A stretch of DNA of 64,000 bases from an uncultured Christensenella sp. Its GTDB lineage: Bacteria > Bacillota > Clostridia > Christensenellales > UBA1242. The translations under genes were made by a program, and so were the position numbers. The number at the start of each line of letters is the position of its first letter. Position 1 is the stretch's first letter. This document shows positions 1-33,791 of the stretch, piece after piece. The stretch is taken from the NCBI GenBank assembly GCA_949293905.1, contig CASFFG010000001.1, positions 64,461-128,460 on the forward strand. The letters run 5' to 3'. The notes beneath the pieces were generated by a model. That model ran no database searches and had not been told where the DNA came from. It worked only from the letters and a program-made list of their open reading frames with translations.

Positions 1-1187
1 CGGATAGTGTGCTATTTGACGGAGAAGAAGAGAATACTAATTTAACAATTTATGTTTACGACAATACAAATATTTTTGAAGGTCTAGAGATTGGAACGGT
101 TATAAGATTTATACCTTCAAATGTTTATAAATCCGACCTGTTTTATTCAAATACGCCAAATAGTTATTTATACACAAACAATTTAAAATATAGTGTAACG
201 GTTAGCATGAACAATCTTGCAATAATAGGTCAAGATTTAACGCTTGCAGAAACTTTGCGTGAATATATTAAGGAAAATCTAGGAAATGGGTTGACGAATG
301 AGAATGTAGAGATTGCATATTCCGCACTTTTCGGGGATAAAGCATTACTTAGTGATTCTCAGTATAGCGCGTATAGGTTAAGTGGAGTTGCACATTTGCT
401 CGCGGTGTCTGGGTTGCATGTTAGTATAATTGTTGGGATTATTTATTGGCTTTTAGACAAACTAAAAATTAAGGGCTGGTATAAGGTTTTAATCGTAGGC
501 GTAATTTTATTTGCATATGCGTATTTATGTGATTTTGCTGTTTCAGTCATTCGCGCTACAATTATGGCACTAGTTATGCTTATTGCACCACTTATGCATA
601 GAGAATATGATAGTTTGTCGTCTATATCATTTGCTGGAATTATAATATTTTTAATAAATCCACTTGCAATATTTGATGTTAGTACTATAATGAGTTTTTC
701 GTGTGTTTATGGAATTGCCCTAATGTATAAACCCATTTATAATGTTTTATCAAAAACTAAAATTTCAACGAAAATTGCACAAAGTCTTGCTATGAGTTGC
801 TCAACTACAGTCGCTTTAATTTTCATTATGGCATACTTTTTCAAAACGCTAAATGTAATTTCGCTTTTCGCAAACATTATTTTAATTCCAATTTTTACTC
901 TTGCATTCATGGTGGTATTTGTGATTTCGTTATTGTCGCTAATTGTTCCGGGCATAACTTATCTATTAGTTGTGATAAATCCAATTTTTGATTTTATCAA
1001 CCTTATTGCGACAGTTTTAGGAAATCTTCCAATCGCAAATTTCTTAACTATCGAATTAAACTATATAGTGATTTTCTTATATTTTGCTATATTGTTACTT
1101 ATAAGTCGAATATGTAGAGCAGAGTATGAACATAGGATAATGATGGTGCTCCCAATAGTTGCATTATTAGTGGTATGTTTGGTATAA
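1..1187 (+). CDS. comEC: ComEC/Rec2 competence channel protein, C-terminal part (5' end outside the window)
   Basis: The frame is open to the left edge. Polytopic membrane protein with the ComEC core motif LSGVAHLLAVSGLHVSII, followed by holA as in other Firmicutes. Confidence 0.8.
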   Translation, partial: DSVLFDGEEENTNLTIYVYDNTNIFEGLEIGTVIRFIPSNVYKSDLFYSNTPNSYLYTNNLKYSVTVSMNNLAIIGQDLTLAETLREYIKENLGNGLTNENVEIAYSALFGDKALLSDSQYSAYRLSGVAHLLAVSGLHVSIIVGIIYWLLDKLKIKGWYKVLIVGVILFAYAYLCDFAVSVIRATIMALVMLIAPLMHREYDSLSSISFAGIIIFLINPLAIFDVSTIMSFSCVYGIALMYKPIYNVLSKTKISTKIAQSLAMSCSTTVALIFIMAYFFKTLNVISLFANIILIPIFTLAFMVVFVISLLSLIVPGITYLLVVINPIFDFINLIATVLGNLPIANFLTIELNYIVIFLYFAILLLISRICRAEYEHRIMMVLPIVALLVVCLV

Positions 1188-1194
1188 TAGATAC

Positions 1195-2109
1195 ATGAAA
1201 TTCATGGAATTTAGTAAATCTTTAAAAACTGAGATTGCCCCTTTATATAATTTAAAGGGCGGAGACATTTTTCTTATTAAAACTGCTATAAATAATTTAA
1301 AATCAACATTAATCACTGATTTTGAAGAATTTAACTATGCTAGATTAAGTGGTGAAAAATTAAAAAAAGATGAATTGATAGCGCAAATTGAAACTCTTCC
1401 TATTGCTAGTGATTATAGATTGATAGTGGTAGAAAATCCTAATATAGAGATCGTGAAATTTTTAAATTCATACAAATTTGATAATGAATCTTGCGTTATT
1501 TTAACTATTAATGCAGATAAATTGACCGCGGGAGAGATGGTCGATTGCGATGCACTTGATAGAAAGGATATAACAAAATATGTACTTAATTATTTAGCGA
1601 AATCTAAATTATCAATACAAGAAAGAGCGCTCGATTATTTGATTGATGCAACAAACGGTGATATGGCACGAATTAGAAATGAGTTAGATAAAATTATTGC
1701 TTATTCTACCGATTTAGAACTAATTGATATAGATGTTGTATCTAAGTTAGTCGCAAACTCTACCGAATATGCGACATATATGCTTACAAGCGCTATTGAT
1801 GAGAAAAACTTAACAAAATTTCAAACGATTTTATCCAATATGACGAAATCTAGTAGCGTCGCGGAAATTTATTCATATATGGGGAGATTCTTTAGGCGCA
1901 TGCAATATATTGCAATATCTAAGGACGATGCGAAATTGACTAAAATTCTAAATATAAAACAATATGCTATTGATATGTCTAGGAAAAACATTAAAAAAAA
2001 TGGGGTAAAGTATTACATTGATTTATACCAAAAATATGTTGACCTTGATTATTCTATCAAGTCAGGTAAGATAACTCCCGAGCATGCTATGTATGAGTTG
2101 GTGTTTTAA
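1195..2109 (+). CDS. holA: DNA polymerase III delta subunit (HolA-like)
   Basis: 304-aa soluble protein directly after comEC (conserved comEC-holA synteny). No diagnostic motif verified. Confidence 0.65.
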   Translation: MKFMEFSKSLKTEIAPLYNLKGGDIFLIKTAINNLKSTLITDFEEFNYARLSGEKLKKDELIAQIETLPIASDYRLIVVENPNIEIVKFLNSYKFDNESCVILTINADKLTAGEMVDCDALDRKDITKYVLNYLAKSKLSIQERALDYLIDATNGDMARIRNELDKIIAYSTDLELIDIDVVSKLVANSTEYATYMLTSAIDEKNLTKFQTILSNMTKSSSVAEIYSYMGRFFRRMQYIAISKDDAKLTKILNIKQYAIDMSRKNIKKNGVKYYIDLYQKYVDLDYSIKSGKITPEHAMYELVF

Positions 2110-2774
2110 TGGATTATACATTACTTAAACCGACTAAAATAGTATACTCCCGTAGGCGCTCAATAGCATTAATAGTGAATAGTAGGGGAGAACTTATTGT
2201 CCGCGCCCCTTTGCGTTGTAGAGATAAGGATATTTATGATTTCATATTTAAAAAGGCTGACTGGATTAGAGAAAAAAGAACCGAAATTAAGTCCGGACCA
2301 TATACTCCATTAACTCCAAAAACAGGTGAAAAAATTCCAATTCTAGACAACATTTACGAAATAAAGTTAGGACAAATTTCAAGGGTGAAAATTATTAACA
2401 ATAATATATGTATTCCAGGAGAAAATTCAAAACAAAAGTTAGTAAACTTTCTTGTCCGTTATGCGAAAAACTATTTAACAAAACGGGTAGGGGAACTTGC
2501 AACTATATTCAATTTTAAATATAAAAGTATAAGACTCACTTCTGCACATACTCGTTGGGGTTCATGCAACTACCAAAATTCATTGAGTTTTACTTATAAA
2601 TTAATTTTGTGCCCGAGAAAAGTAGTAGATTACATCATTATTCATGAACTTTCACACACGATTGAGAAAAATCATAGTAAAAAATTTTGGGCACTAGTAG
2701 AGAAATGCATGCCCGACTACAAAGATAGTGAACGCTGGCTAAAAGACAATCGCGCAATAATTTACTTTATTTAA
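2109..2774 (+). CDS. YgjP-like (DUF45/M48-type) zinc metallohydrolase
   Basis: HELSH zinc motif followed by HSKKFW near the C-terminus. TAATG overlap with the holA stop. Confidence 0.8.
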   Translation: MDYTLLKPTKIVYSRRRSIALIVNSRGELIVRAPLRCRDKDIYDFIFKKADWIREKRTEIKSGPYTPLTPKTGEKIPILDNIYEIKLGQISRVKIINNNICIPGENSKQKLVNFLVRYAKNYLTKRVGELATIFNFKYKSIRLTSAHTRWGSCNYQNSLSFTYKLILCPRKVVDYIIIHELSHTIEKNHSKKFWALVEKCMPDYKDSERWLKDNRAIIYFI

Positions 2775-2843
2775 AATTTCACAATGTAGTTTTAATTTTT
2801 ATCTAAACATGTGAAAATCTAGATTTTTGTTCAAATTATAATT

Positions 2844-3044
2844 TTATATAAATAATTGATAAATTTGAATGTTTAGAATTTTGGCAATTTTAAAAAGCGT
2901 AACAATACTAAAATTTTTATTATTTGTCATTATTTTATTTAAAGTACCTAAACTTATTTTACAAATTTTGCAAAACTTGATTTTAGTCAAGTTCTTTTCT
3001 TTTATATAGTTTTCTATTAGTTTTATATTTATATTATTCCCCAT
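2844..3044 (-). CDS. Small XRE-family helix-turn-helix regulator
   Basis: 66-aa protein with an HTH-like segment (LTKIKFCKICKISLGTLNKI). Divergent from a second XRE gene. Confidence 0.55.
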   Translation of the reverse strand: MGNNINIKLIENYIKEKNLTKIKFCKICKISLGTLNKIMTNNKNFSIVTLFKIAKILNIQIYQLFI

Positions 3045-3074
3045 ATTTCATCCCTGTTACGGAATAATTATATT

Positions 3075-3090
3075 ATCCCTATATAGGGAT
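3075..3090. promoter_or_regulatory. Perfect 16-bp palindrome ATCCCTATATAGGGAT, candidate operator between the divergent XRE genes
   Basis: Read directly in the 99-bp divergent intergenic region. Confidence 0.4.
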
Positions 3091-3143
3091 TGTCAAGACT
3101 TTTTTGCATATTTTGGAGTATTCTATATAAAAAGGAATAATAT

Positions 3144-3347
3144 ATGAAAAAATTTGCTGAAAGATTGAAAGAATTGAGGATTGAAAAAGGGCTATCCATC
3201 CAAGCTCTAGCGAAAGAAGTAAAAATCGGTTCATCCTCAATTTGCCGATGGGAAAATCAACAAGCCGATGTAAAAGGCTCTCAACTTATAATTCTTGCAA
3301 AATTTTTTAAAGTTTCAGTGGACTATTTATTAGGGTTAGAAGATTAG
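3144..3347 (+). CDS. Small XRE-family helix-turn-helix regulator
   Basis: 67-aa protein. RLKELRIEKGLSIQALAKEVKIGSSSICRWEN is a classic Cro/C1-type HTH. Confidence 0.7.
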   Translation: MKKFAERLKELRIEKGLSIQALAKEVKIGSSSICRWENQQADVKGSQLIILAKFFKVSVDYLLGLED

Positions 3348-3473
3348 TATATGCTAGATTTTGTGACCATATAATTGATTTTTACTTATATGATTTATTA
3401 AGATTATTAAATATTTGTATTTTATTTCTTCATAATTATTTAAAAAATTGCAAATACATTAAAAGATAAAGCA

Positions 3474-3501
3474 TTAAAAATTCCAAGGTAAACACTTGGA
3501 A
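3474..3501 (-). terminator. Rho-independent terminator downstream of tRNA-Thr(CGT)
   Basis: 7-bp stem TTCCAAG/CTTGGAA followed by a T-run on the minus strand. Confidence 0.6.
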
Positions 3502-3511
3502 TATTTTTATT

Positions 3512-3587
3512 TGGAGCTACTGGGCGGACTCGAACCGCCGACCTGCTGATTACGAATCAGCTGCTCTACCGACTGAGCCACAGTAGC
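3512..3587 (-). tRNA. tRNA-Thr (anticodon CGT), CCA encoded
   Basis: The reverse complement folds as a cloverleaf: GCTACTG acceptor, GGTTCGAGTCC T-arm, anticodon loop TTCGTAA. Confidence 0.9.
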
Positions 3588-3595
3588 ATATGCCT

Positions 3596-3624
3596 ATAAT
3601 AGCATAATTTATTAAAATTTTCAA
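3596..3624 (-). promoter_or_regulatory. Sigma-A-type promoter for tRNA-Thr(CGT): TTGAAA-17-TATTAT with TGn
   Basis: Read on the minus strand. The -10 box ends about 8 nt before the tRNA 5' end. Confidence 0.5.
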
Positions 3625-3775
3625 TCATTTTATGCAGATTTCTTCAAAATTTGTATTTGTTTTATATGAATAATAGCAAGGAATAGATATAAAATTAAAA
3701 AATTTGATTACATCAATTTAGTAAGCGAATGTATTTAGTTGCAATTTTTTTGCCAATTTGATATTATAAAATAGA

Positions 3776-5113
3776 ATGGCAGTAAAAATTGTAGCAATAA
3801 TTTTTTTGTTGATTATGTATATAGTCATGGAATCAGTCATGATTATTTTTGAGCGTGATAAACCACGAAATATGATAATCTGGACAATTATTTTTCTATT
3901 TACATCACTCGTTGGATATCTCATATATATGATATTTAAAATTGTAAATTACAAAAATAAAATATCTTTAAAACTGAAACAAAATGAAGATGCGATTTAC
4001 AAAAAGTTAATTGAAAATAAACTATCGACCTATGAATATAGGGAATATAACGAGTTATTTCACTTTAACAAAATAGGATTTAGTGCGAGACTAACTAATA
4101 ACAACCAAGTAAAGACATATAACAATTTTAAAACTTTTTTAGATAAACTGATAGGCGAAATAAATTCAGCAAAAAATTATATTTTGATTGAGATTACATC
4201 AATAAACTTTAAAGAGTATAACGATTTAAAGTCCGCATTAATAAATAGAGCGAAAGCGGGTGTTTTAATTAAACTTGTGTATGAAAAGAATTTAGGCAGC
4301 AAGGTTATTAAAGAACTAAAAGCAGAAGGTATAAAGTTATATAAATTTAGTAAATATCCGCGCGTCTCTAACTATTATAGAAATTTAAGAAATATAATCT
4401 CTATTGATGGAAACACTTGCTTCTCTTGTGATTTGAATATAAAGAAGAAACAGTTAAGAGATAATGTAGAAACTTTAAATTTATTCTTAGAGTTAAAAGG
4501 TAACGTAGTACAAGATATAGATGTTGCAGTGCGTCAAGATATAGTCTTCGCTAGTGGTAAGTATATCGAGTACGAAGAAAGGCTTATGCAAATAACAAAA
4601 ACTGAAACAAAAATACAGTATGTTATTAATGAGTTTTCCCGCGATTTAGAGTTGTCGATTATTAAAGCGATAAGTTTATCAAAATCTTCAATTCAACTTC
4701 AACTAGACGAATACATTCCGTCCGAATGCATAATGTCTCTTTTAAAATTTGCTATACATTCTAATATTGAAGTAAAATTGATGGTTCCTCTAAAAACATA
4801 TAAGCATAGTAAGTACTTTGCATCGCGTGCATATGCAAAAGAACTTGCACTAACGGGCGCAAAGGTATACCTGTTTGACGGATATATTCGATATAATTCA
4901 ATAGTCATTGATGACAAATATGCAATTGTGGGTTCGTACACAATAAACCGTGACCAAATTAATAATTGTATGCAAAACATTATTATAGTAGAAGATGATA
5001 AAGTCGTAAATTATCTTAATAATATGTTTAATAATGCGGTAGAGAATAGTTATAAGATTTCTAATGCAAAATACATGTTATTACGCGAAAAATTCTTTAA
5101 AAACTTCATTTAA
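3776..5113 (+). CDS. Cardiolipin synthase / phospholipase D family homologue with degenerate HKD motifs
   Basis: Two N-terminal TM helices plus two PLD-like repeats. The positions that align to HxK(x)4D read RNLRNIISIDG and RYNSIVIDD. Confidence 0.7.
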   Translation: MAVKIVAIIFLLIMYIVMESVMIIFERDKPRNMIIWTIIFLFTSLVGYLIYMIFKIVNYKNKISLKLKQNEDAIYKKLIENKLSTYEYREYNELFHFNKIGFSARLTNNNQVKTYNNFKTFLDKLIGEINSAKNYILIEITSINFKEYNDLKSALINRAKAGVLIKLVYEKNLGSKVIKELKAEGIKLYKFSKYPRVSNYYRNLRNIISIDGNTCFSCDLNIKKKQLRDNVETLNLFLELKGNVVQDIDVAVRQDIVFASGKYIEYEERLMQITKTETKIQYVINEFSRDLELSIIKAISLSKSSIQLQLDEYIPSECIMSLLKFAIHSNIEVKLMVPLKTYKHSKYFASRAYAKELALTGAKVYLFDGYIRYNSIVIDDKYAIVGSYTINRDQINNCMQNIIIVEDDKVVNYLNNMFNNAVENSYKISNAKYMLLREKFFKNFI

Positions 5114-5127
5114 TCTAAGGAGAAGAT

Positions 5128-5964
5128 ATGGTTTTTGGTGTGGCTGGTGTACCCACTAATTACAAAGGTAAATTCGTAAACCTTTTTGATTGGTTACGCG
5201 GAATGGGGCTTAACGGTTACGAAATTCAGTGTACATATGGCTTTAAAATTAGTGAAGAGAATAGGAAAATTATAAATGCCGAACAAAAAAACGGCATGTA
5301 TTTTTCCATGCACGCACCATACTATATAAATCTAGGAAGTCTTAATAATGCAGTTGTCGGCCGTAGTAAATCTAACATGAAAGAAGGGATTGAACTCGCA
5401 AAACTCATCGGTGTAAATCGTATAATTTTTCACCCAGGTGGTGGGCATGAGAACACCATTGAAGGCAGGAAAAGAGCGATTGACCAGTTAGTTGATGCCG
5501 TCAATGAGTTTACTAGCGAAATAGATATGGGAGATGTCCGCTTATATCCCGAAATAGGCGGAAAGACAGCAAGCCTTGGTTCAATAGATGAAATTATCGA
5601 GATATGTAAGAGATGCGAATATTGTTATCCATGTATTGATATAGCACACTTACACGCCCGCGAACATGGTAGCATACAAACAAAACAAGATTTAATCGAT
5701 AGACTATCAAAAATAAAACGTGAAATTCCAGAGAAATTTAAGCATATTCATTTTCATGCATATACTATTAACTACGGAGATAAAGGAGAAATTAAACATC
5801 TTAAACATGGCGAAAGTATGCCGAACGGGGACGAGGGCAAACCTAATTTAGACGATTTTGTCGCAGTACTGAAAGAAATGAAAATCGAACCGTGGGTTAT
5901 AAGTGAAGCGCTTGACACACAGGAATTAGGTGCAAAATATATGCACGATAAGTATGTTTCATAA
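5128..5964 (+). CDS. AP endonuclease family 2 (endonuclease IV-like) TIM-barrel protein
   Basis: MHAPYYINLGS ... IIFHPGG ... IDIAHLHA pattern resembles Nfo/xylose-isomerase-like barrels. Confidence 0.55.
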   Translation: MVFGVAGVPTNYKGKFVNLFDWLRGMGLNGYEIQCTYGFKISEENRKIINAEQKNGMYFSMHAPYYINLGSLNNAVVGRSKSNMKEGIELAKLIGVNRIIFHPGGGHENTIEGRKRAIDQLVDAVNEFTSEIDMGDVRLYPEIGGKTASLGSIDEIIEICKRCEYCYPCIDIAHLHAREHGSIQTKQDLIDRLSKIKREIPEKFKHIHFHAYTINYGDKGEIKHLKHGESMPNGDEGKPNLDDFVAVLKEMKIEPWVISEALDTQELGAKYMHDKYVS

Positions 5965-6794
5965 TGCAAAAGAGAGAATTTGTTCTAGATAAAGATAAAG
6001 AACTTATTAAGGCAGTGATTGACGAACTGCCCTTTCTTTCGCGCTTTGAAATTGAAAAAATCCTTAAAAACAAAGATATCAAAGTCAATAATTTAAGAGT
6101 ACAATCTAATTTAAAACTGAATTCGGGCGATAAAATTACTATTTTCTATTACGAAAGGGAGCAAAAAGAGTGGTATACTTTGGTTTATGCTGATGAAAAT
6201 ATACTAATTGTAAATAAGCGCGCGGGGATTGAAGTTGTGAGCGAAACTGAACGCGATTTAGTCCATGTTTTATCTCAAAATTATACCAACATTATTCCAG
6301 TACATAGAATAGATAGAAATACGGAAGGTCTAGTCATCTTTGCGCAAAATTCCACTAGCGAAAAAGAACTTTTGTCCGCCTTTAAAACACGAAAATCTAT
6401 TGTCAAGGAATATGCACTTCTAGTTCACGGTAGAGTAGACATCTCGAAAATTAAACGCACTGTCTATTTAAAGAAGATGGACAATTTAAGCAAGGTTTGG
6501 ATTAGCGAAGTAAAGACGAGCGGATACGAACCAATCTCTACCGAATTTAGCATACTAGAATATAGGGGTGATAAAACATTGATGACAGCTCGCCTAATTA
6601 CAGGGAAAACTCATCAAATTCGTGCGCATATTGCATATTATGGCTATCCAATCGTGGGCGACCAGAAATACGGCAAAGACAATGAAAAACAAATGCACTT
6701 GACCGCAAACTATCTTGCTTTCAACTTTCCTAAGCAATCACCACTAAAATATCTAAACAGTAAAACTTTTGAAATTATTCCAACATGGATTTAA
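5964..6794 (+). CDS. RluA-family pseudouridine synthase with N-terminal S4-like domain
   Basis: Catalytic motif HRIDRNTEGLVIFA and GKTHQIRAH. Confidence 0.85.
   Translation: MQKREFVLDKDKELIKAVIDELPFLSRFEIEKILKNKDIKVNNLRVQSNLKLNSGDKITIFYYEREQKEWYTLVYADENILIVNKRAGIEVVSETERDLVHVLSQNYTNIIPVHRIDRNTEGLVIFAQNSTSEKELLSAFKTRKSIVKEYALLVHGRVDISKIKRTVYLKKMDNLSKVWISEVKTSGYEPISTEFSILEYRGDKTLMTARLITGKTHQIRAHIAYYGYPIVGDQKYGKDNEKQMHLTANYLAFNFPKQSPLKYLNSKTFEIIPTWI
6336..6349 (+). repeat. Exact copy of the 14-nt arm ATCTTTGCGCAAAA inside the rluA-family CDS
   Basis: Identical to the paired arms at 32066-32079 and 32086-32099. Encodes part of VIFAQN. Confidence 0.6.
6528..6567 (+). repeat. Direct repeat copy 1 (inside the rluA-family CDS)
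   Basis: 36 of 40 nt identical to 9916-9955, counted by eye. Confidence 0.85.
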
Positions 6795-6919
6795 TTTTCA
6801 TTTGTTTTATATCGTTGTTTTAATATATTTTTTGATATTTTTATATTTCCATTTGTATGAATTTTTAAATTTTATTTTCATGGATTGATACTTATATAGT
6901 ATTAATAAATTTTTTGGTA

Positions 6920-6948
6920 TTGACTAAATGAGTATTTGGTTTTATAAT
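6920..6948 (+). promoter_or_regulatory. Sigma-A-type promoter TTGACT-17-TATAAT upstream of the 980-aa ORF
   Basis: Consensus hexamers. AGGAG lies 5 nt before the ATG at 6970. Confidence 0.6.
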
Positions 6949-6969
6949 TGAGAAAACTTAGGAGAAACT

Positions 6970-9912
6970 ATGCTTTTACAAAATCCAATTTTAAGTAGAA
7001 TTCATACTCATTTAACAGAAATAAATGATAATCTCTTACACGGAAATGATTTAGTTACAGATTGTAAAGTATACAATGAAAAGAAAGATAATAAAGTTAA
7101 GTTCATATTAACCGATTTTTCACCGAGAATTACAACCCAGTCAAGTATAATTTTAAAAGATTTTATTTATGACGGAAAACTTGAATTTGAATTAGACCTA
7201 AAAACTGGAAATATAGTTATAAATGAATTTCCAACATTGCAAAACAAAGGCGCGTATGCCGAACGACAAGATAGAATTTTCCTTTTTACAAGCGATTTGG
7301 CGAACCTTGTAAAGAAACAAGCAGAAAAATTCATAGAAGCGGACGAACTAAATTTAGTTTTTAAATCGCAACTTGCACTTGTTGCTATTGACGATAAAGT
7401 AAGTAGCGTTTTTCCTAATATCATAAATTCTCGCACATACAACTCATTAAAAAATTACATGCAGGCGATAGATAAAGAAATTAAAGATATTGAAACTCGC
7501 GTAAAAACTGAGAAAGCACATAAAGATAGAGTTTTGCATAATCAAGAATTCGCTATTAATAAAAAGACAAAAGTTATGGGTATATCTCCGCTAGATTACA
7601 CTAATCAAGATGAATTTGACCAAGCAATGCGTGAGAAATTATTAGAATATTACAATAAAAATGTAAAAAACATAAAAAGACACTTAAAGGCGATAAAAAC
7701 CAAATATATTGACTTGTTAGTAAGTTATAATATGAGCAGAAAGAATGCAGAGCGCATATTTAAAGTTGATATATCGGCGGGTGGTGTTAAGGATTTAATT
7801 GAAAGATATAATCGTGAGCAAGGATACAAATTCAGGAGAAGTGTAAGATATGATTGCGGTGAACTAGCGAAAACATATACTCCCGCAGACGATATAGATC
7901 ATAGAACAGATGCGCACGAAGAAGCATATGTCTTTTTCTTATATAATTTTGTAGGATTTTTTAACGAAGAATTTGATTACGATAACTATGCATTCGAAAT
8001 AAAATGGAATGAAATATCTCTTTTAAAAAATCAGTACTTAGAAGATGAGGACGATAATGATGGTGAACTAAAACACCCTATATTTAATAAATCTAATTTT
8101 TATACAAATGGAAATACCTCACCAGATAAAATTAAAAATACAGTCGCAAAAGGCTGGGAATTACTCGCTGATTATATAAAACTAGAAGATAAACTTAAAG
8201 TATATACTCAGTTATTAGCAAAGGTGGAACAGGGTGAAGATGTTTTATTGAATTTTTCTAAAACCGATTCATCGTTTGGAATGTTGCATTTATTGCCTAG
8301 TTGGATAAGATTTTCTAGAAAATATAGAAATCATGATACAACGACGGTAGATTTGGGTGATAACTACCATATGATTATGGTAAAACCGGGTACAACAGAT
8401 ATTGATTTATATAAGTTAAGAAATTTTACAGTAAAAAATGGTTATGAATTTGGTAAAAGAGGAGAAGATCGTCAAGAAGTATTAAATAGATTAAACAGAC
8501 TTAAACCCGAATTAAAGGAAAGGGTTGAAAAACTAATTGTAACAATTCCCAATAGTTTGAGCCCAAAATCAATTAAACAAATAACGGATTGGATAAAAGT
8601 GGTAGGCGTAAGAGTGATTTACTTATGCGAAGGTTTTGATGCTATATCGAAGTTAAAGTCCGCTCGTTTTTCGCAAGAAATTGATAAGATAAAAAGCGAA
8701 GGAGTAGAAAAATATGAAGAAGATTTTAAAAAAGGACAATGCTCAATATATGGACCGACTAGAAATAAAAGATATGAAGATATTGTGATAGATAGAGATT
8801 ATTACAACAAGTTCATGGCAACAACTCCACATAATATCACATTATTCCATAAACTCATTGCAAAATGGTTCTTAAACAACATTATCTATAAGGTTGAAAA
8901 AGAAACCGAAATTTTCCAAAAAGAATTCCTACCTAGGTTCTTAGAAGATGCATTAAATGAGGGTGAAAAAAGTAGTGAATTTTCTAAAAATGAAATTCAA
9001 TCTACCATAGAATTTACTTTACAGACCGAACTTAATAACTGCAAAAATGAAAACGGAGATATCGATTACAGTAAATTTAATATTTCGAATTTTGAAAAAC
9101 TTTTATTTGATGGGGAAGATATATTATTACAATGTATAAAAGATGGTAAAGACTACAAAGGTAAGAATATTTATCTAGCACCATCATTGTTATTCTACAA
9201 ACCTTTGAAAGGTTATAATTATGTTGAATTTCCTAAAACAGTCGAGTTTAGCTCCTGTTTATCTTGTTTAGATGATGATTTAGAACCAGACCTTAGAAGT
9301 TTGGTTAATCATATTGCTCTTGCCTTTGGAGATGCGAGAGTGTACGACATAAGGAAACTAATTGATCATCTTTCAAACTTTGTTGGTTTATCCAAGGACG
9401 AGCTAAAAAATAAAATTGAAGATTCATTAAAACCATTTAAGCTAGACACTAAATATTCTTTAAAAAACCATGAGAGATACAAAAAATATATAAGCAAGCA
9501 AGAAGAAGCAACAAATCGACGAGTTATGCAAGATGTTGTGGCTGAGTATCTTGATTACTTAAATGAAAAGTATAATAAAAACATTAATGGAAGAGATACG
9601 ATATGCGATGATATTGAAAATGTTATCGGCGACAAGAAAGAATTTATTATAACATCATTTAATGGAGAGATTCAGGATAAGAGGGAAAAGGTAATAAATG
9701 ACATAACAAAATTGTATATTCCAGAGATAGTGGAAAAAAATATTCATCAAAATGTAATTGAATTGTATCGTAGAAATAATTGGAAAGTTAAAATATCCAA
9801 GGAAGATTGCGTATCGATTTTACAAAAATTTATAGTAGATTACTTGTCAAATAATAAAGAAGCATTAGAGTTGTATGATTTTGCACTTGCAATAGTGAAT
9901 ATACCATTTTAA
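6970..9912 (+). CDS. Large orphan cytoplasmic protein (980 aa), function unknown
   Basis: Long uninterrupted ORF with its own promoter and SD. No signal peptide, TM segment, Walker A or other motif I recognise. Confidence 0.8.
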   Translation: MLLQNPILSRIHTHLTEINDNLLHGNDLVTDCKVYNEKKDNKVKFILTDFSPRITTQSSIILKDFIYDGKLEFELDLKTGNIVINEFPTLQNKGAYAERQDRIFLFTSDLANLVKKQAEKFIEADELNLVFKSQLALVAIDDKVSSVFPNIINSRTYNSLKNYMQAIDKEIKDIETRVKTEKAHKDRVLHNQEFAINKKTKVMGISPLDYTNQDEFDQAMREKLLEYYNKNVKNIKRHLKAIKTKYIDLLVSYNMSRKNAERIFKVDISAGGVKDLIERYNREQGYKFRRSVRYDCGELAKTYTPADDIDHRTDAHEEAYVFFLYNFVGFFNEEFDYDNYAFEIKWNEISLLKNQYLEDEDDNDGELKHPIFNKSNFYTNGNTSPDKIKNTVAKGWELLADYIKLEDKLKVYTQLLAKVEQGEDVLLNFSKTDSSFGMLHLLPSWIRFSRKYRNHDTTTVDLGDNYHMIMVKPGTTDIDLYKLRNFTVKNGYEFGKRGEDRQEVLNRLNRLKPELKERVEKLIVTIPNSLSPKSIKQITDWIKVVGVRVIYLCEGFDAISKLKSARFSQEIDKIKSEGVEKYEEDFKKGQCSIYGPTRNKRYEDIVIDRDYYNKFMATTPHNITLFHKLIAKWFLNNIIYKVEKETEIFQKEFLPRFLEDALNEGEKSSEFSKNEIQSTIEFTLQTELNNCKNENGDIDYSKFNISNFEKLLFDGEDILLQCIKDGKDYKGKNIYLAPSLLFYKPLKGYNYVEFPKTVEFSSCLSCLDDDLEPDLRSLVNHIALAFGDARVYDIRKLIDHLSNFVGLSKDELKNKIEDSLKPFKLDTKYSLKNHERYKKYISKQEEATNRRVMQDVVAEYLDYLNEKYNKNINGRDTICDDIENVIGDKKEFIITSFNGEIQDKREKVINDITKLYIPEIVEKNIHQNVIELYRRNNWKVKISKEDCVSILQKFIVDYLSNNKEALELYDFALAIVNIPF

Positions 9913-28569: not shown

Positions 28570-28623
28570 ATAATTCTCCTAACACAAATTTAACATAAAA
28601 TCAAACAAATGTCAAACATTTCT

Positions 28624-28637
28624 CAAACATTTGTTCG
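28624..28637. promoter_or_regulatory. LexA (Cheo) box upstream of lexA
   Basis: Minus-strand CGAACAAATGTTTG versus the Gram-positive consensus CGAACnnnnGTTCG. Confidence 0.6.
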
Positions 28638-28729
28638 ATAAATTAAAAATTTTATTTAGAAAATTTTAAAAAGAAAGATTTATAAGAGTATGTAGATATA
28701 GTGTATTATATTATTAAAATACACAGTAT

Positions 28730-29776
28730 CTAGTTATTATTAAGTTTTACTTTGCCCGCGACTGATTTGCGAATATCATCACTAATGGCAGCGTAGTGTT
28801 TTTTAGTAGTATTTACATCTTTATGACCAAGTACTTCTGCGACTATATAAATATCTTTAGTTTCATTATATAAATTCGTGCCGTATGTCGAGCGGAGTTT
28901 ATGCGGAGTAATATTTTTAAGCGGAGTGGCGACTTTAGCATATTTCTTTACTAAATATTCCATCGCGCGTACCATCATACGCTTTCCTTGACTAGAAATA
29001 AATAGCGCGCGTTCTTCTTTTGGTAAATTTAATGTATCTCGATATGCCAGGTACTGCTTTAATGCTTCGGCTGTTTCCTCACCAAAGTATAAAATTACTT
29101 GATTACCACCTTTTCGAGTTACTCTAAACGAATTTAGGTTAAAATTTATATCGTCAACATTAAGTCCAACACATTCACTAACACGAATACCAGTTGTGAG
29201 AAACAGTGAGAGAATAGCATTATCTCTAACCTTAAATTTTTCATTGTATTTTTTCTGGTGTTCGCTAAATCCAGATAGAGTATCGCACGAATACATTAGT
29301 TCGGTGGTCTCTTGTGGTTCAAGACGAATTATCGGCTTTTCGTGTAGTTTAGGACTTGCAACTTTACTAGCCACGTTGGCTTTAAGCATATCTTTATTGA
29401 AAAAATACTTAAAAAAGGCACGTATTGTTGAGAGTTTCCTTAGTTTCCCTCGCTCACCATTTGTAATGATTTTTCCATTTTCTTTATCGTAATAGGATAG
29501 AGATGCCATAAAACGCTCAATAGTTTGGGAATCCAAGGTGTCAATATCTGCGAGCGTTATACTTTTAATCTCACGACCAACAAAATTCGTTTCATAGGTA
29601 ACTAAATAAGAGAAAAATGTTTTTAAATCTACCGCATAATTAAGTCGAGTGAGTGGAGTAGTGGTGTCTTGTATTCCAATAAAAAATATTGAACAAAACG
29701 CAGGTAAATCGGCTAACATTTCGTTTAATTTACGCATATTATTACGGTTTCTATCCAAATAGTAATTAGATGACAT
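28730..29776 (-). CDS. Tyrosine recombinase, long (348 aa) Xer-like; possibly a single-recombinase XerS/XerH type
   Basis: Catalytic residues present: TGIRVSE (Arg), HKLRST (His/Arg), LGHKDV, KKHY (Tyr). The length and N-terminal domain resemble XerS by recollection. Confidence 0.8.
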   Translation of the reverse strand: MSSNYYLDRNRNNMRKLNEMLADLPAFCSIFFIGIQDTTTPLTRLNYAVDLKTFFSYLVTYETNFVGREIKSITLADIDTLDSQTIERFMASLSYYDKENGKIITNGERGKLRKLSTIRAFFKYFFNKDMLKANVASKVASPKLHEKPIIRLEPQETTELMYSCDTLSGFSEHQKKYNEKFKVRDNAILSLFLTTGIRVSECVGLNVDDINFNLNSFRVTRKGGNQVILYFGEETAEALKQYLAYRDTLNLPKEERALFISSQGKRMMVRAMEYLVKKYAKVATPLKNITPHKLRSTYGTNLYNETKDIYIVAEVLGHKDVNTTKKHYAAISDDIRKSVAGKVKLNNN

Positions 29777-29782
29777 AATTAT

Positions 29783-29811
29783 ATTATAATATATCTTTGC
29801 GTAAAAAACAA
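29783..29811 (-). promoter_or_regulatory. Promoter TTGTTT-17-TATAAT ending 6 nt before the recombinase ATG (leaderless); the spacer is occupied by arm a
   Basis: Counted on the minus strand. No SD. Confidence 0.5.
29793..29806 (+). repeat. Arm a: ATCTTTGCGTAAAA
   Basis: Lies 17 nt from the recombinase start codon. Followed by AA. Confidence 0.8.
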
Positions 29812-29860
29812 ATGATTTTTTATGAATTTTATTAAAATTTTATTATGAAATTGTATTTTG

Positions 29861-29889
29861 TTGCAAAAAATAGACGCATGTGCTATAAT
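29861..29889 (+). promoter_or_regulatory. serS promoter TTGCAA-17-(TGc)TATAAT
   Basis: Consensus-like with an extended -10. Only about 25 nt to the ATG. Confidence 0.6.
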
Positions 29890-29913
29890 CAATACAATTA
29901 AGAGGTAGAGAAA

Positions 29914-31200
29914 ATGATTGACATTAATTTTTTAAGAACTAACCCAGATATTGTGAAAGAAAACATAAAAAAGAAGTTTCAGGACCATAAATTGCATTTA
30001 GTAGATGAAGTTATTGATATGGATATTAAAGTTCGTGCTTTAAAAAAGGAAGGAGATGACCTTCGCGCAAAAAGAAATACTCTATCAAGCCAAATCGGTG
30101 CGCTCATGAAAGAAAAACGAGTTGATGAAGCAAATAAAATCAAAGCAGAAGTCGTATCGAACAATGAGCGAATTGCGACTATTGAAAAGGAAGTTAGCGA
30201 CTTAGACGCGAAAATAAAGCACGCTATGATGAGCATTCCAAATATTATTGCAGATGATGTCCCTATTGGAAAAGATGATAAATCAAATGTCCAAGCACAA
30301 ACCTTCTTAGAGCCAAAAGTCCCAGATTTTGAGATTCCTTATCATACTGAAATTTTAGAAAAATTAGACGGAATTGATGTTGATAGTGCTAGGCGCACAT
30401 CAGGTCAAGGGTTTTATTATCTAACAGGGGATATTGCGCGTCTTCATAGTGCAATTTTAGCATACGCTCGTGATTTTATGATTAATAAAGGTTTTACTTA
30501 TGTCATACCGCCATTTATGATACATGGTAGTGTTGTCGAAGGCGTAATGAGTTTCGAAGAAATGGGGAATATGATGTATAAAATAGAAGGGGAAGACCTT
30601 TATCTTATCGGTACTAGTGAACATAGCATGATAGGGCGCTTTATGGATACCATTATTCCAGAAAATAAACTACCAATTACTCTAACATCATATAGTCCAT
30701 GTTTTAGAAAAGAAAAAGGTGCACATGGCATAGAAGAGCGTGGAATTTATCGTATACATCAATTCGAAAAGCAGGAAATGATAGTTATCTGTAAACCAGA
30801 AGATAGCGAAAGTTGGTATGAGAAAATGTGGAACTATACGGTAGAACTCTTCGTATCCATGGAAATTCCGGTTAGAACATTAATATGCTGTTCAGGAGAT
30901 TTAGCAGACTTAAAATATAGAAGTCTAGATGTCGAAGCATGGAGCCCTAGACAAAAAAAATATTTCGAAGTTGGCTCATGTAGTAATCTTTCAGACGCTC
31001 AGGCGCGTAGATTAGGCATTAGATATAAAACCGAAAAAGGAAATGTATTTGCGCATACATTAAATAATACGGTTGTAGCACCGCCTAGAATGTTAATTGC
31101 TTTTGTAGAAAATCATCTACAGGCGGACGGAAGCGTAACTATTCCTGAAGTTTTATGGCCATATATGGGAGGAACAAAAGTAATAACTCCTAAAAAGTAA
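29914..31200 (+). CDS. serS: Seryl-tRNA synthetase
   Basis: N-terminal coiled-coil arm plus a class II core (FRKEKGAHG, GSCSN). Confidence 0.95.
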   Translation: MIDINFLRTNPDIVKENIKKKFQDHKLHLVDEVIDMDIKVRALKKEGDDLRAKRNTLSSQIGALMKEKRVDEANKIKAEVVSNNERIATIEKEVSDLDAKIKHAMMSIPNIIADDVPIGKDDKSNVQAQTFLEPKVPDFEIPYHTEILEKLDGIDVDSARRTSGQGFYYLTGDIARLHSAILAYARDFMINKGFTYVIPPFMIHGSVVEGVMSFEEMGNMMYKIEGEDLYLIGTSEHSMIGRFMDTIIPENKLPITLTSYSPCFRKEKGAHGIEERGIYRIHQFEKQEMIVICKPEDSESWYEKMWNYTVELFVSMEIPVRTLICCSGDLADLKYRSLDVEAWSPRQKKYFEVGSCSNLSDAQARRLGIRYKTEKGNVFAHTLNNTVVAPPRMLIAFVENHLQADGSVTIPEVLWPYMGGTKVITPKK

Positions 31201-31210
31201 CATATAAAAG

Positions 31211-31249
31211 ACTAGCAAGTTAAACTTAAATTCGCTTGCTAGTTTTTTT
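31211..31249 (+). terminator. serS terminator
   Basis: Stem ACTAGCAAG/CTTGCTAGT followed by TTTTTT. Confidence 0.7.
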
Positions 31250-31259
31250 ATATAAGATT

Positions 31260-31273
31260 TTTTACACAAAGAT
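31260..31273 (-). repeat. Arm b: ATCTTTGTGTAAAA (one mismatch), reverse orientation
   Basis: The plus strand reads TTTTACACAAAGAT. Confidence 0.7.
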
Positions 31274-31295
31274 AATGTTTGTTTATTAGATAAAA

Positions 31296-31493
31296 TTAGT
31301 TTAGTCCACGCTGTTTCGATATTTCATAAAGGCAAACGGTGGTGGCATTAGCGACATTTAATGAATCTATACCTTTTCGCATATTTATTTTTACTAAATG
31401 ATTGGCCTTGTCTTGCCAATATTTTGATATACCAAAAGTTTCATTCCCTATAACCAACACTGTGGGCTTTTTAAAGTCACACTCGCTAATCAT
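31296..31493 (-). pseudogene. C-terminal relic (65 codons) of a SpoU/TrmH-family RNA 2'-O-methyltransferase
   Basis: VLVIGNETFGIS...LNVANATTVCLYE matches SpoU motifs 2 and 3. The N-terminal two thirds or so of a typical family member are absent. Confidence 0.7.
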
Positions 31494-31518
31494 AATGAAT
31501 ATAACAATATAGTTAGTT

Positions 31519-31532
31519 TTTTACGCAAAGAT
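31519..31532 (-). repeat. Arm c: ATCTTTGCGTAAAA, reverse orientation
   Basis: The plus strand reads TTTTACGCAAAGAT. The in-frame stop that opens the relic ORF lies just outside it, in the flanking A-run. Confidence 0.8.
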
Positions 31533-32012
31533 GTAATTATTTGATAATAAGATAAAATGTGACATGTTTTTGAAATATTAAATGGTATAAATGATAGAAT
31601 ATAACAATAAGTATAGTAAACCTGAGAGATGATAGGGAATTTCGCAATTTATTCAAAACAACTTAAAAGGCATATCACCACAAAATGCTCTCAGGCGAAT
31701 TGATTAAAATTTAGTTAAGTAATTATTCACATGGATTTACAATTTTTTACTCAATCAATACCAATTTTATAAATGGCCTAAAATCTGCGCTGAGACAAAT
31801 TGAAATAAGTTAAAATAAGGTATTGGTCATGTAGATTTTAAAAATTAAGTTAACCGGGCAACAATCTTTAGTCAAAGTGAAATTGCATGCTGATACAATA
31901 AACTTATAAAAACAATAAATACGAAAATTTATAAAAATAAACCAAAATTTATTATGTGGACAATTAAAACTAAATCTTGTCGAATAATGTCAAACTATAT
32001 AGATTAATTTAG

Positions 32013-32050
32013 AATCTGTGGACAAAAATCGGGTTTTCCACAGATTTTTT
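32013..32050 (+). terminator. Terminator-like hairpin in the ORF-free region
   Basis: 10-bp stem AATCTGTGGA/TCCACAGATT, 14-nt loop, then TTTT. Confidence 0.45.
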
Positions 32051-32065
32051 GCTCAAAATCGTCAT

Positions 32066-32099
32066 ATCTTTGCGCAAAAGAAGAGTTTTGCGCAAAGAT
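32066..32099. other. Perfect 14-6-14 inverted-arm site ATCTTTGCGCAAAA-GAAGAG-TTTTGCGCAAAGAT; candidate recombination core (dif-like) site
   Basis: Read directly. This is the architecture of tyrosine-recombinase core sites. Confidence 0.55.
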
Positions 32100-32465
32100 G
32101 TATGTATAAAAATCTACACCACTCCGCTTTTGTCCACAAATATATTTTCTCTACCTAACTAAGATTTTAGTAACATATAGGCTCAAAATTAAGCGACAAA
32201 TTAATTCTTATATAAGTAAACTTTGTTCTTGCAATCCAAATAGCATTACAATTAAATGGAATTGTTCCAGAGCAAATAACTAAAACATTTGTTTATCAAA
32301 ACACTGATTTATGTCAACATACTAGATTAAGTTAATCTTAATATAAATTAGTTGCTATAACCAAAACCAGCAATAAATTTATCTAATTAGTCTTACTAAT
32401 GTAATTCATTGTCACGCAAATTTACTCTACACTACTCTACTGCGCTTTATATATATTTGTATTAT

Positions 32466-32479
32466 ATCTTTGCGTAAAA
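32466..32479 (+). repeat. Arm e: ATCTTTGCGTAAAA
   Basis: Lies 70 nt beyond the stop of the ynbB-like gene. Confidence 0.8.
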
Positions 32480-32549
32480 AATTCATTCTAACTTATTTCG
32501 TTAAAATGAATGTAAACTATATTACCTCGAACTAAATATTTTTAAACAA

Positions 32550-33791
32550 TTAGTCTACGAGAGTTTTAATCGCATTCATAAGTCCAAGTTTTCCATGTTT
32601 ATATGTCAAACAACCTTGGAGATATCCTGCATAAGGTTCGCGCATCGGTCCGTCGCAACTTAGTTCAATACTACTTCCTTGATTAAAACTACCGCTAGCC
32701 ATGATGATAAGGTCTTCGTAACCGTCCATCTCTCCCGCTTCTAAAATTGAGTCACTATCTATCGCACTACATGCTTGAATTGCGCGAGCAAAATTAACTA
32801 ATTTGTCTCTATCTTTAAATTCAATAGTGCAAACGATATCACTAATTGGTTGGTTTACACTAGGAATAGTTTTATATCCTAAAGATGAAAGAACGCTTGA
32901 AGTTAGACGAACCAATTTCATGCTTTCTCCTACAACATGCGGAGCCATAAAGACGCCTTGAAAGAACGCCTTATAACCAGGTTCATAAGAGCCATTATCT
33001 ACACTTAACGCAGGGCTCATCATCTTATATGAAATTAACTCAATTAATTCACTCTTCCCCGCTATATATCCGCCAGTTGGCGCTATTCCTCCTCCCATGT
33101 TTTTAAGTAAAGAACCAATAACTAAATCTACTCCTACATCAGTAGGCTCTCGTATTTCAGTAAATTCGCCATAGCAATTATCTACTACGATGTATGCGGA
33201 AGTAACTTGTCTAACATATTTTACCAAACTTTTTATTTGGTCGATGGTGATTGCGTTTCTAAGGGAATACCCTCGTGAACGTTGGATATAAATCACTTTT
33301 GGTGTATATTTTTTTATCGCACTAAGGATATCAGGTACATTAAAATCATTGTTTATTAAATCTATTTCATGGTAGCTGATTTTATAGTCTTTAAGTGAGC
33401 CAATATCTCGCCCTTCTTCCCCGAAAATAACTCGTTTTAGAGTGTCATATGGAGTACCGCTTACACAAAGCATATTATCGCCAGGTCGTAAAATTCCTAA
33501 AAGTGATTGACTTATTGCTTCAGTTCCGCAACTAATCAAAGGAGAAACGAATGCACTCTCGGTATGAAAAATTGAAGCAAAAACTGCACTTATTTTTTCC
33601 TTACCAACATCGTTATGCCCATAACCAGTACTCCCAATAAAATGGTACGATTGAATATGATTTTCATTAAAAGCATTAAGTACTTTAAGTTGATTTTTTA
33701 GTTCAATCTCATCAATAGCATTAAAAAGATGCGCAATTTTTTTTTCGCTATCATTTACTAGTTTTAAGATATTTTCATTAATTTCTATCAT
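32550..33791 (-). CDS. Methionine gamma-lyase-family PLP protein (YnbB / aluminium-resistance-type)
   Basis: GSTGYGHND...LRPGD...GTPYDTL pattern. Position downstream of miaA. Confidence 0.7.
   Translation of the reverse strand: MIEINENILKLVNDSEKKIAHLFNAIDEIELKNQLKVLNAFNENHIQSYHFIGSTGYGHNDVGKEKISAVFASIFHTESAFVSPLISCGTEAISQSLLGILRPGDNMLCVSGTPYDTLKRVIFGEEGRDIGSLKDYKISYHEIDLINNDFNVPDILSAIKKYTPKVIYIQRSRGYSLRNAITIDQIKSLVKYVRQVTSAYIVVDNCYGEFTEIREPTDVGVDLVIGSLLKNMGGGIAPTGGYIAGKSELIELISYKMMSPALSVDNGSYEPGYKAFFQGVFMAPHVVGESMKLVRLTSSVLSSLGYKTIPSVNQPISDIVCTIEFKDRDKLVNFARAIQACSAIDSDSILEAGEMDGYEDLIIMASGSFNQGSSIELSCDGPMREPYAGYLQGCLTYKHGKLGLMNAIKTLVD

Follow-up and report, generated by a model that had tools for sequence, protein, structure and literature searches.

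A palindromic candidate dif site and putative solitary half-sites of a XerS-like recombinase in uncultured Christensenellales

The XerS/difSL system of streptococci and lactococci is a dimer-resolution module that works with a single recombinase (PMC5357621, PMC2965235), and XerS monomers bind to isolated half-sites (PMC2965235). An open question for single-recombinase Xer systems, among them XerH/difH of Helicobacter and Campylobacter (PMC5357621, PMC5241119), is how direction and timing are imposed when one protein binds both arms of the site. Here we describe a locus that bears on this question, in a 64-kb stretch of DNA (hereafter the window, with a G+C content of ~31%) from an uncultured Christensenella sp. 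(contig CASFFG010000001.1, positions 64,461 to 128,460 of the forward strand), where six copies of a 14-nt arm, ATCTTTGCGYAAAA, lie beside the gene for a XerS-like tyrosine recombinase. We put the probability at roughly three in four that the arm is a half-site of this recombinase (28730-29776), forming as a pair a dif site and serving singly as an auto-operator at the recombinase promoter (arm a) and as satellites, with no invertible or mobile cassettes at the locus. The dif arms are identical, the asymmetry of the site lies only in its spacer and conserved flanks, and the extra half-sites appear to be under strong selection in a reduced genome.

The arms are distributed on both strands of the interval between xer and a ynbB-like gene: a (29793-29806, + strand), c (31519-31532, − strand), dL (32066-32079, + strand), dR (32086-32099, − strand) and e (32466-32479, + strand) are exact, and b (31260-31273, − strand) differs at one position, ATCTTTGTGTAAAA. 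A first-pass annotation, made from the window sequence, had reported these arms, and a re-check agrees with it on their coordinates and strands, on their continuations (GTAAAAAA at the four solitary arms, GCAAAA at the two paired ones), on the lengths of the segments between them (1453, 245, 533 and 366 bp), and on the recombinase gene beside arm a, whose ATG (29776) lies 16 nt from the arm. Its argument that such clustering could not be due to chance holds as well, since the window contains six exact matches to ATCTTTGCGYAAAA where 0.01 would be expected, a count reached in 0 of 100 shuffles; allowing up to two mismatches gives 13 matches against 3.3 expected. The six exact matches comprise the five exact arms of the locus and an additional copy that had been overlooked, at 6336-6349 (+ strand) inside a pseudouridine-synthase-like coding sequence, where it encodes I-F-A-Q-N. 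We discount this copy as a distant satellite, since it is not conserved at the DNA level in three orthologues (proteins 72-76% identical); the same codons read ATCTTTGCATTGAA, ATATTTGCTCTCAA and ATTTTTGCGCGCAA in these, none of them arm-like, and the copy is therefore regarded as a coding coincidence. With that exception, arms in the window and in 48 loci of related species, collected by a protein-guided scan and given L numbers below, are limited to the interval between ynbB and xer: no conserved arm occurs in the rest of the window or in ~0.8 Mb of DNA flanking the related loci, prophage junctions excepted. Comparison across species shows that the 14-nt arm is under strong selection and restricted to the xer–dif locus.

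Arms dL and dR are the two halves of a perfect 14-6-14 palindrome (32066..32099), ATCTTTGCGCAAAA GAAGAG TTTTGCGCAAAGAT, which has an asymmetric spacer and is unique within the window. The GC skew stays above zero as far as ~24 kb and is below zero past ~32 kb, with a cumulative maximum at 30-32 kb, and long open reading frames lie nearly all on the + strand to the left and on the − strand to the right, meeting at serS (+) and the ynbB-like gene (−). Because the skew switches where the genes converge, the window appears to span the replication terminus, and the palindrome is located right at this switch in skew and gene orientation. It is surrounded by 1.35 kb of gene-free DNA, which is notable for a genome of this kind; the host group is Candidatus Onthoplasma, and the Christensenellales family UBA1242 has reduced genomes of 0.8-0.9 Mb with a coding density above 0.9 (PMC12306168). 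The attributes of a dif site are present together, namely inverted arms with a 6-bp centre, a position at the terminus as judged over 64 kb, and a recombinase of the Xer group with its catalytic residues, and the palindrome has no T-tract of the intrinsic-terminator type.

A 14-6-14 site is found in every related locus whose sequence extends far enough, and within the genus the palindrome arms are almost invariant while the surrounding intergenic DNA has diverged. The genus spacers (GAAGAG, GAAGTG, GAAGGC, GAAGGG and GTGTTG) are asymmetric and always in the same orientation. Despite four different arm sequences, 24 of 30 genus sites are perfectly symmetric, so both arms of a palindrome are altered together, a pattern suggestive of gene conversion inside the palindrome or of selection for a symmetric site. 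Both dif arms are altered in L015 (7719), L016 (7720) and L017 (5860), where the solitary arms are still canonical. The ynbB-side flank (32100..32140) is also conserved, with ATGnATATAAA, a CAC-rich box and TTGTCCACA (32130-32138) at fixed offsets in ~30 species. More distant relatives, with Xer proteins ~50% identical, have different dif arms (ATCTATGCG.., ATCTATTCG..), and L043-L046 have the full site upstream of xer, at a distance of 100-290 bp; the sole extra half-site found in L045 and in L047 is identical to the dif arm of the same species. At the same position in L044 (10204) and L045 (10198), ~200 nt within the xer coding sequence, there is a half-site that matches the species' own dif arm. 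Gene order around the palindrome is maintained across related loci as mutL-miaA-ynbB, palindrome, serS, xer-lexA-padR, and the alignment of the syntenic lexA-xer-serS...ynbB interval, which the first-pass annotation had suggested, gives a constant order and arm orientation in ~30 species.

Prophages provide a further line of evidence. Gokushoviruses have been shown experimentally to integrate at the dif site of Escherichia coli by means of the host Xer proteins (PMC7062461). Two of the related loci, L017 and L039, carry inserts of 5.3 kb (521-5893) and 5.8 kb (1633-7496) between ynbB and the palindrome, and both encode a Microviridae set of F capsid (573 bits), Chp2-type scaffold, pilot protein, Rep, ORF5 and a small helix-turn-helix repressor; neither insert encodes an integrase. 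At the ynbB-side border each insert has an arm, followed by the species' own spacer and then unrelated sequence, whereas the other border is a complete palindrome. The former are hybrid attachment sites, composed of arm, dif spacer and foreign arm, at position 521 of L017 and position 1633 of L039. The repeat in L017 is 66 nt long with one mismatch, starts directly past the Rep stop codon, and takes in 46 nt of the host ynbB-side flank; in L039 identity is limited to the arm and spacer, and the flank is alike at the level of motifs. Because the phage site of L017 copies these 46 nt, the conserved ynbB-side flank may belong to the functional dif site. A capsid-based scan found 79 microvirus relatives, of which only one, L291, contains the arm, at the same prophage junction as in L039, and no free-phage attachment site was recovered among the 79. 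Scans of viral contigs with the bare 14-mers gave, among the matches listed, chance occurrences only, with no microvirus and no partner arm. Insertion of integrase-less microviruses with duplication of arm and spacer is characteristic of Xer-exploiting elements, and it indicates that the palindrome is probably a working dif, the use of which by Xer can be inferred indirectly from the prophage junctions. The L017 and L039 prophages resemble the gokushovirus members of the integrative mobile elements exploiting Xer (IMEX; PMC7062461, PMC3091885) in being integrase-less Microviridae with a dif of the bacterium on one flank and a hybrid dif-like site on the other. They differ in that the host is a reduced-genome member of the Clostridia with a single XerS-like recombinase rather than XerCD, and in that 46 nt of host flank are duplicated in the phage site of L017 as well; no element of this type is present in the window. 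The skew apex, the conservation across relatives and the integration of integrase-less microviruses at this point all favour the earlier proposal that the paired arms are a dif-like site.

The recombinase gene (28730..29776, − strand) encodes 348 amino acids and is assigned by its hidden Markov model matches and catalytic motifs. The best NCBIfam match is XerS (NF003462), over positions 4-354 of 360 with 178.6 bits against a cut-off of 267; the XerC, XerA and XerD models rank after it, and E-values for the four range from 1e-52 to 1e-46. The Pfam Phage_integrase model gives 116 bits. Among solved structures XerD (1a0p) is nearest, and the alignment to it shows the R..HxxR..H..Y motifs. No second Xer-like gene occurs in the 64-kb window. 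The likeness to XerS/difSL extends to one tyrosine recombinase of ~350 amino acids with a full-length best model match, a linked site at the terminus, and arms that end in inner A4/T4 tracts (TTTCCGAAAA versus CTTTGCGCAAAA). The position of the full site upstream of xer in the distant relatives L043-L046 is the one known from difSL (PMC5357621). In contrast, difSL is an imperfect 31-bp site with unequal arms (PMC5357621), whereas the palindrome described here is a perfect 14-6-14 with identical arms; in this genus serS parts the site from xer, at a distance of 2.3 kb in the window, and only a half-site is found at the promoter; and there are conserved satellite half-sites and an accessory region. 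Given the score below the cut-off, the perfect palindrome and the separation of site and gene, the locus, which would function much as the single-recombinase XerS/difSL and XerH/difH modules do, does not appear to be a member of XerS/difSL. Similarities to XerH/difH (PMC5357621, PMC5241119) comprise a single long Xer, a site near the gene, A/T-tract arm ends (AGTTATGAAAA) and the 6-bp central region seen in structural work on XerH. However, sequence similarity to XerH (PDB 5jjv) is weak (E = 2e-8) and confined to the catalytic domain, and satellite half-sites are not described for XerH/difH.

Arm a lies within the putative promoter of the recombinase gene (29778..29812, − strand), between a −35-like TTTGTT (29812-29807) and a −10 box TATAAT (29788-29783), where the arm (29793-29806) fills the promoter spacer from about −30 to −17. 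The promoter spacer is a classical position for repressor binding. An a-type arm, at most one mismatch from canonical, occurs 16-120 nt upstream of xer in 38 species, and an alignment of these anchored on the arm gives 1.5-2.7 bits at arm positions compared with 0-1 bit in the flanks. Read toward xer, the consensus is TTTgTT / TTTTACGCAAAGAT / aTtgTAtAAT; the TATAAT box starts 4 nt past the arm and is often preceded by TG. A promoter scan also gave a 10/12 match at arm a, on a −10 hexamer 5 nt nearer the ATG. In the window the xer ATG follows the −10 box by 6 nt, and a spacing of 6-7 nt occurs in ~11 species (including the window, L003, L004, L012, L022, L023, L029, L033, L036 and L049), from which the xer mRNA of these species is probably leaderless. 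In other species the leader is longer and contains a Shine-Dalgarno sequence. Where the region is rearranged, arms at the promoter are retained: L011 has a two-mismatch arm in the promoter spacer and two further arms upstream, and in L013 and L042 a degenerate arm occupies the spacer and a perfect one stands immediately upstream of TTGACA. None of 26 a-type arms has a terminator-like hairpin beside it, and serS has a good promoter of its own downstream (TTGCAA-17-TATAAT). Since a monomer bound at arm a would block RNA polymerase, the simplest reading of this arrangement is that arm a is probably an auto-operator through which the recombinase represses its own gene. The first-pass annotation had listed operator sites as an alternative, and for arm a its position in the promoter and its conservation favour that alternative, with the recombinase itself as the likely regulator.

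Arm c, the serS-side satellite half-site, bounds the accessory region of dif on the side away from the palindrome. It is present as the exact 14-mer in one orientation in all 30 genus loci, 310-1011 bp from the palindrome, and where insertions part dif from serS (L017, L018, L024 and L040) it keeps near dif. On its inner side TTGACA or TTGATA often follows after 6-10 nt, and a plausible −10 box goes with it. On the outer side a strong hairpin of A-tract, stem and T-tract, the serS terminator, is present in about half of the species, at −7 to −12.5 kcal/mol; hairpins are reported here as energies because a strict terminator criterion requiring a T-rich tail under-counted them, the T-tract being part of the stem. 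In the window, arm b lies 8 nt past the serS terminator hairpin (−11.6 kcal/mol), and arm b with ~40 nt of adjoining sequence is a diverged direct duplicate of arm c with ~40 nt (direct repeats D12 and D14). Between b and c (31296..31493, − strand) lies a C-terminal fragment of a SpoU methylase, 65 amino acids long, that matches positions 88-142 of 142 in PF00588 as well as RlmB/TrmH C-termini. The segment consisting of arm b and this fragment has no homologue in any related locus, and by this comparison arm b is a local copy of c peculiar to the window, which arose along with the insertion of the SpoU fragment. Arm e, the ynbB-side satellite, mirrors c and adjoins the hairpin downstream of ynbB (−7.0 kcal/mol). 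Equivalents are found only in L004, with one mismatch, and in L021, L028 and L040, as doublets 40 nt apart; on this distribution arm e is a lineage-variable mirror copy of c.

The gene-free accessory region between arm c and the palindrome (31533..32065) contains a ~60-nt module and DnaA-box-like motifs. The module, AAATGCGCTGAGACGAATTG-N9-AAAGATGAnnAATTGGTCAT, is located at 31775-31835, with a degenerate copy at ~31640-31700; related loci (L003-L041) have one to four tandem copies between the serS-side arm and dif, and it occurs nowhere else in the loci or the window. The last ~130 nt on the serS side of the palindrome are 72-79% identical across relatives and constant in orientation. The DnaA-box-like motifs (TGTGGAYAA ... 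TTTCCACA) occur in the window as TGTGGACAA, TTTTCCACA and TTGTCCACA, at 31955-31963, 32017-32025, 32034-32042 and 32130-32138; they keep fixed offsets on both sides of dif, with a TCCACA at +34 on the ynbB side, and are invariant in ~30 species. Three of the four window matches to the strict pattern TT[AG]TCCACA lie within 180 bp of the palindrome, at the terminus and not at an origin. A replication origin, which the cluster of DnaA-box-like motifs had brought to mind, was rejected, as skew polarity and gene convergence point to a terminus. A non-coding RNA in the accessory region was likewise dropped. Rfam searches, run on the whole window at gathering thresholds and on 31200-32560 by E-value, gave tRNAs and one sub-threshold chance hit only, and RNAalifold on the ~60-nt module and the conserved block gave either no structure or an invariant 5-bp stem lacking covariation. 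The absence of an Rfam family, consensus structure and covariation suggests that the motifs of the accessory region are more likely protein-binding DNA than RNA genes.

By analogy with the family, two recombinase monomers would bind each dif, two dif sites would synapse, and strand exchange would take place at the spacer, so that chromosome dimers would be resolved at the palindrome by the XerS-like recombinase. Monomer binding to a lone arm is plausible in view of the half-site binding of XerS. A monomer on arm a may thereby block RNA polymerase and repress xer, as its position and conservation suggest, and the satellites, c and e where present, would most likely each hold one monomer near dif. 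Arm c would close off the gene-free accessory region, ~0.3-1 kb on the serS side of dif, and e would mirror it in the few lineages that have it. The role we favour for the satellites is architectural or accessory, that of organising or insulating the dif complex, and the main alternative is an XDS-like site that acts as a roadblock to, or unloads, SMC or transcription. In Bacillus subtilis, according to PMC11840125, XerD unloads Smc-ScpAB at dif-like XDS sites in the terminus, and for archaea the same source reports a domain boundary within a large intergenic region that contains dif. At the sequence level, the locus shares with XDS sites exact arms that have no partner, lie within 2.3 kb of dif and fall in the terminus region. 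However, the half-sites here are 0.3-2.3 kb from dif and one is within the xer promoter, whereas the XDS sites of Karaboja's 2021 work are reportedly spread over a large terminus region. Extra recombinase motifs around a core site are also familiar from the TnpI/IRS sites of Tn4430 and Tn5401, which have a core and additional TnpI-binding repeats, with autoregulation in Tn5401, and from FRT, the third repeat of which is an extra copy of the recombinase motif at a core site. The psi and cer resolution sites have accessory sequences (10.64898/2026.02.23.706985). What these systems have in common with the present locus is a core plus additional recombinase motifs or a one-sided accessory region, and a recombinase that binds, or here would bind, at its own promoter. 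Their accessory elements abut the core over ~60-200 bp, in contrast to a variable 310-1011 bp here, and their sites belong to transposons or plasmids whereas this one is chromosomal.

Several points weigh against reading the arm as a half-site of the XerS-like recombinase. The whole case is comparative; the recombinase, at 178.6 bits, is under the XerS family cut-off of 267; and the survey for Xer genes covers the 64-kb window. The distance of arm c from dif, varying from 310 to 1011 bp, is loose for a fixed nucleoprotein architecture, and arm e is missing in most species. Arm c adjoins promoter-like and terminator-like elements, and a purely transcriptional role is possible. In principle another DNA-binding protein could recognise the arm, and the concerted change of the palindrome arms could reflect constraints on a hairpin or cruciform.

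Other explanations of the solitary arms concern recombination. The earlier suggestion that all arms are recombination sites of the adjacent enzyme survives in part: a half-site reading fits best and the paired arms are dif-like, but the solitary arms lack a partner and a matching spacer. The 14 nt past a 6-nt gap match a second arm at only 4-5 positions, the chance level in A+T-rich DNA, and the 6 nt beside the solitary arms (AACAAA, AACTAA, AATCTT, AATTCA) are unlike the dif spacer. A shufflon-like or cassette system, in which the recombinase would invert or excise the segments between a and b, c and dL, and dR and e, could draw on the inverted and direct pairing of arms around short segments beside a tyrosine recombinase gene, and on the many contigs of metagenome-assembled genomes (MAGs) that break near the locus, which could reflect heterogeneity. 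We consider it very improbable nonetheless, given solitary arms with 4-5 of 14 positions matched opposite, would-be spacers that match neither GAAGAG nor CTCTTC, and the conserved 130-nt block, serS and xer in one relative orientation in ~30 species. Moreover, the segments consist of housekeeping serS or of non-coding DNA, offer no alternative promoters or coding ends to shuffle and are not repeated elsewhere, and strain variation and prophage insertion explain the contig breaks equally well. Exact-protein look-ups returned nothing for ynbB or serS, and for xer two short contigs that end before dif. Scars of past IMEX, in which each solitary arm would be the dif half of an old hybrid attachment site, are unlikely, though less so than cassettes. 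Integration at dif does occur, the hybrid sites of L017 and L039 consist of arm, spacer and foreign arm, the window-specific b–c segment lies between directly repeated arms, such that b may have originated in this way, and arms c and a face each other over serS much like a split site. True hybrid sites retain the dif spacer, however, and arms a, b, c and e do not. Arms a and c are exact, syntenic and of fixed orientation in 30-38 species although the intergenic DNA around them has diverged, a sign of selection and not of decay, and arm a is embedded among promoter elements at a constant offset. The pseudo-sites or scars of the first-pass annotation fare poorly on these grounds.

Regulation by a different protein, for example the adjacent PadR-like regulator, would make the arms its operators and the palindrome its main operator or a hairpin or terminator. 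Arms a and c do lie at promoter-like elements, the palindrome arms co-vary in some species in a manner that suits a symmetric dimer or a stem-loop, and a PadR-family gene and lexA are nearby. Yet integrase-less prophages are joined to the chromosome precisely at arm plus spacer, and an asymmetric spacer of 6 bp, a position at the terminus and linkage to xer, to which the site is directly adjacent in distant relatives, all fit the core site of a tyrosine recombinase. Solitary half-sites would serve a dimeric regulator poorly, the palindrome has no terminator T-tract, and lexA has an SOS-box-like motif of its own, so that we judge operators of another protein distinctly unlikely, somewhat more so than scars. 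Least probable of all are the terminal inverted repeats of miniature inverted-repeat transposable elements (MITEs) or elements like repetitive extragenic palindromes, with c/dL and dR/e as two abutting copies. Inverted 14-nt repeats do enclose two non-coding segments, of 533 and 366 bp, but these are unrelated to each other or to anything else in the window and have no target-site duplications. Nor are the arms dispersed, as the MITE alternative of the first-pass annotation would have it, either in the window or in the ~0.8 Mb of related DNA, the sole outside copy being the coding coincidence.

Both the integration of microviruses at dif and the existence of non-recombining Xer sites have precedents. 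The combination of a symmetric dif, a half-site operator at the xer promoter and a satellite half-site that closes an accessory region with modules and DnaA-box-like motifs, in reduced-genome Clostridia, was not found in the literature searched. It is conceivable, although we regard it as doubtful, that the satellites, the one-sided accessory region and the symmetric dif constitute an undescribed control architecture, in which recombinase monomers, perhaps with DnaA or another factor, build a complex and the half-site is reused as an auto-operator. If so, such a complex would supply the asymmetry, the selectivity for resolution or the insulation from SMC or transcription that XerCD systems obtain from two recombinases and FtsK. 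Irrespective of such a complex, the identical arms and extra half-sites make the question of direction and timing testable through mutation of defined short elements. The locus is a likely example of Xer autoregulation via a half-site and a possible compact counterpart of the Bacillus XDS sites; temperate microviruses appear to exploit a XerS-like system in uncultured gut Clostridia; and, for annotation, the locus would mark the terminus and dif of this lineage.

Among the window neighbours of xer are lexA, the PadR-like gene, serS, miaA and mutL. An SOS-box-like motif, CGAACAAATGTTTG, lies upstream of lexA at ~28605-28640 (− strand), which suggests an operator for lexA that is distinct from the arm motif. 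In L019 (1-12720) the serS-xer-lexA-padR block with ~3 kb of additional DNA is inverted relative to mutL-miaA-ynbB, unlike in all other species, and the junction has neither arm nor palindrome; this may be a true inversion spanning the terminus or a MAG misassembly. In L007, L018, L020, L022, L028 and L030 the contig stops no more than a few hundred bases from the palindrome or arm a, and these contig ends could reflect variation at the strain level, for example in prophage occupancy.

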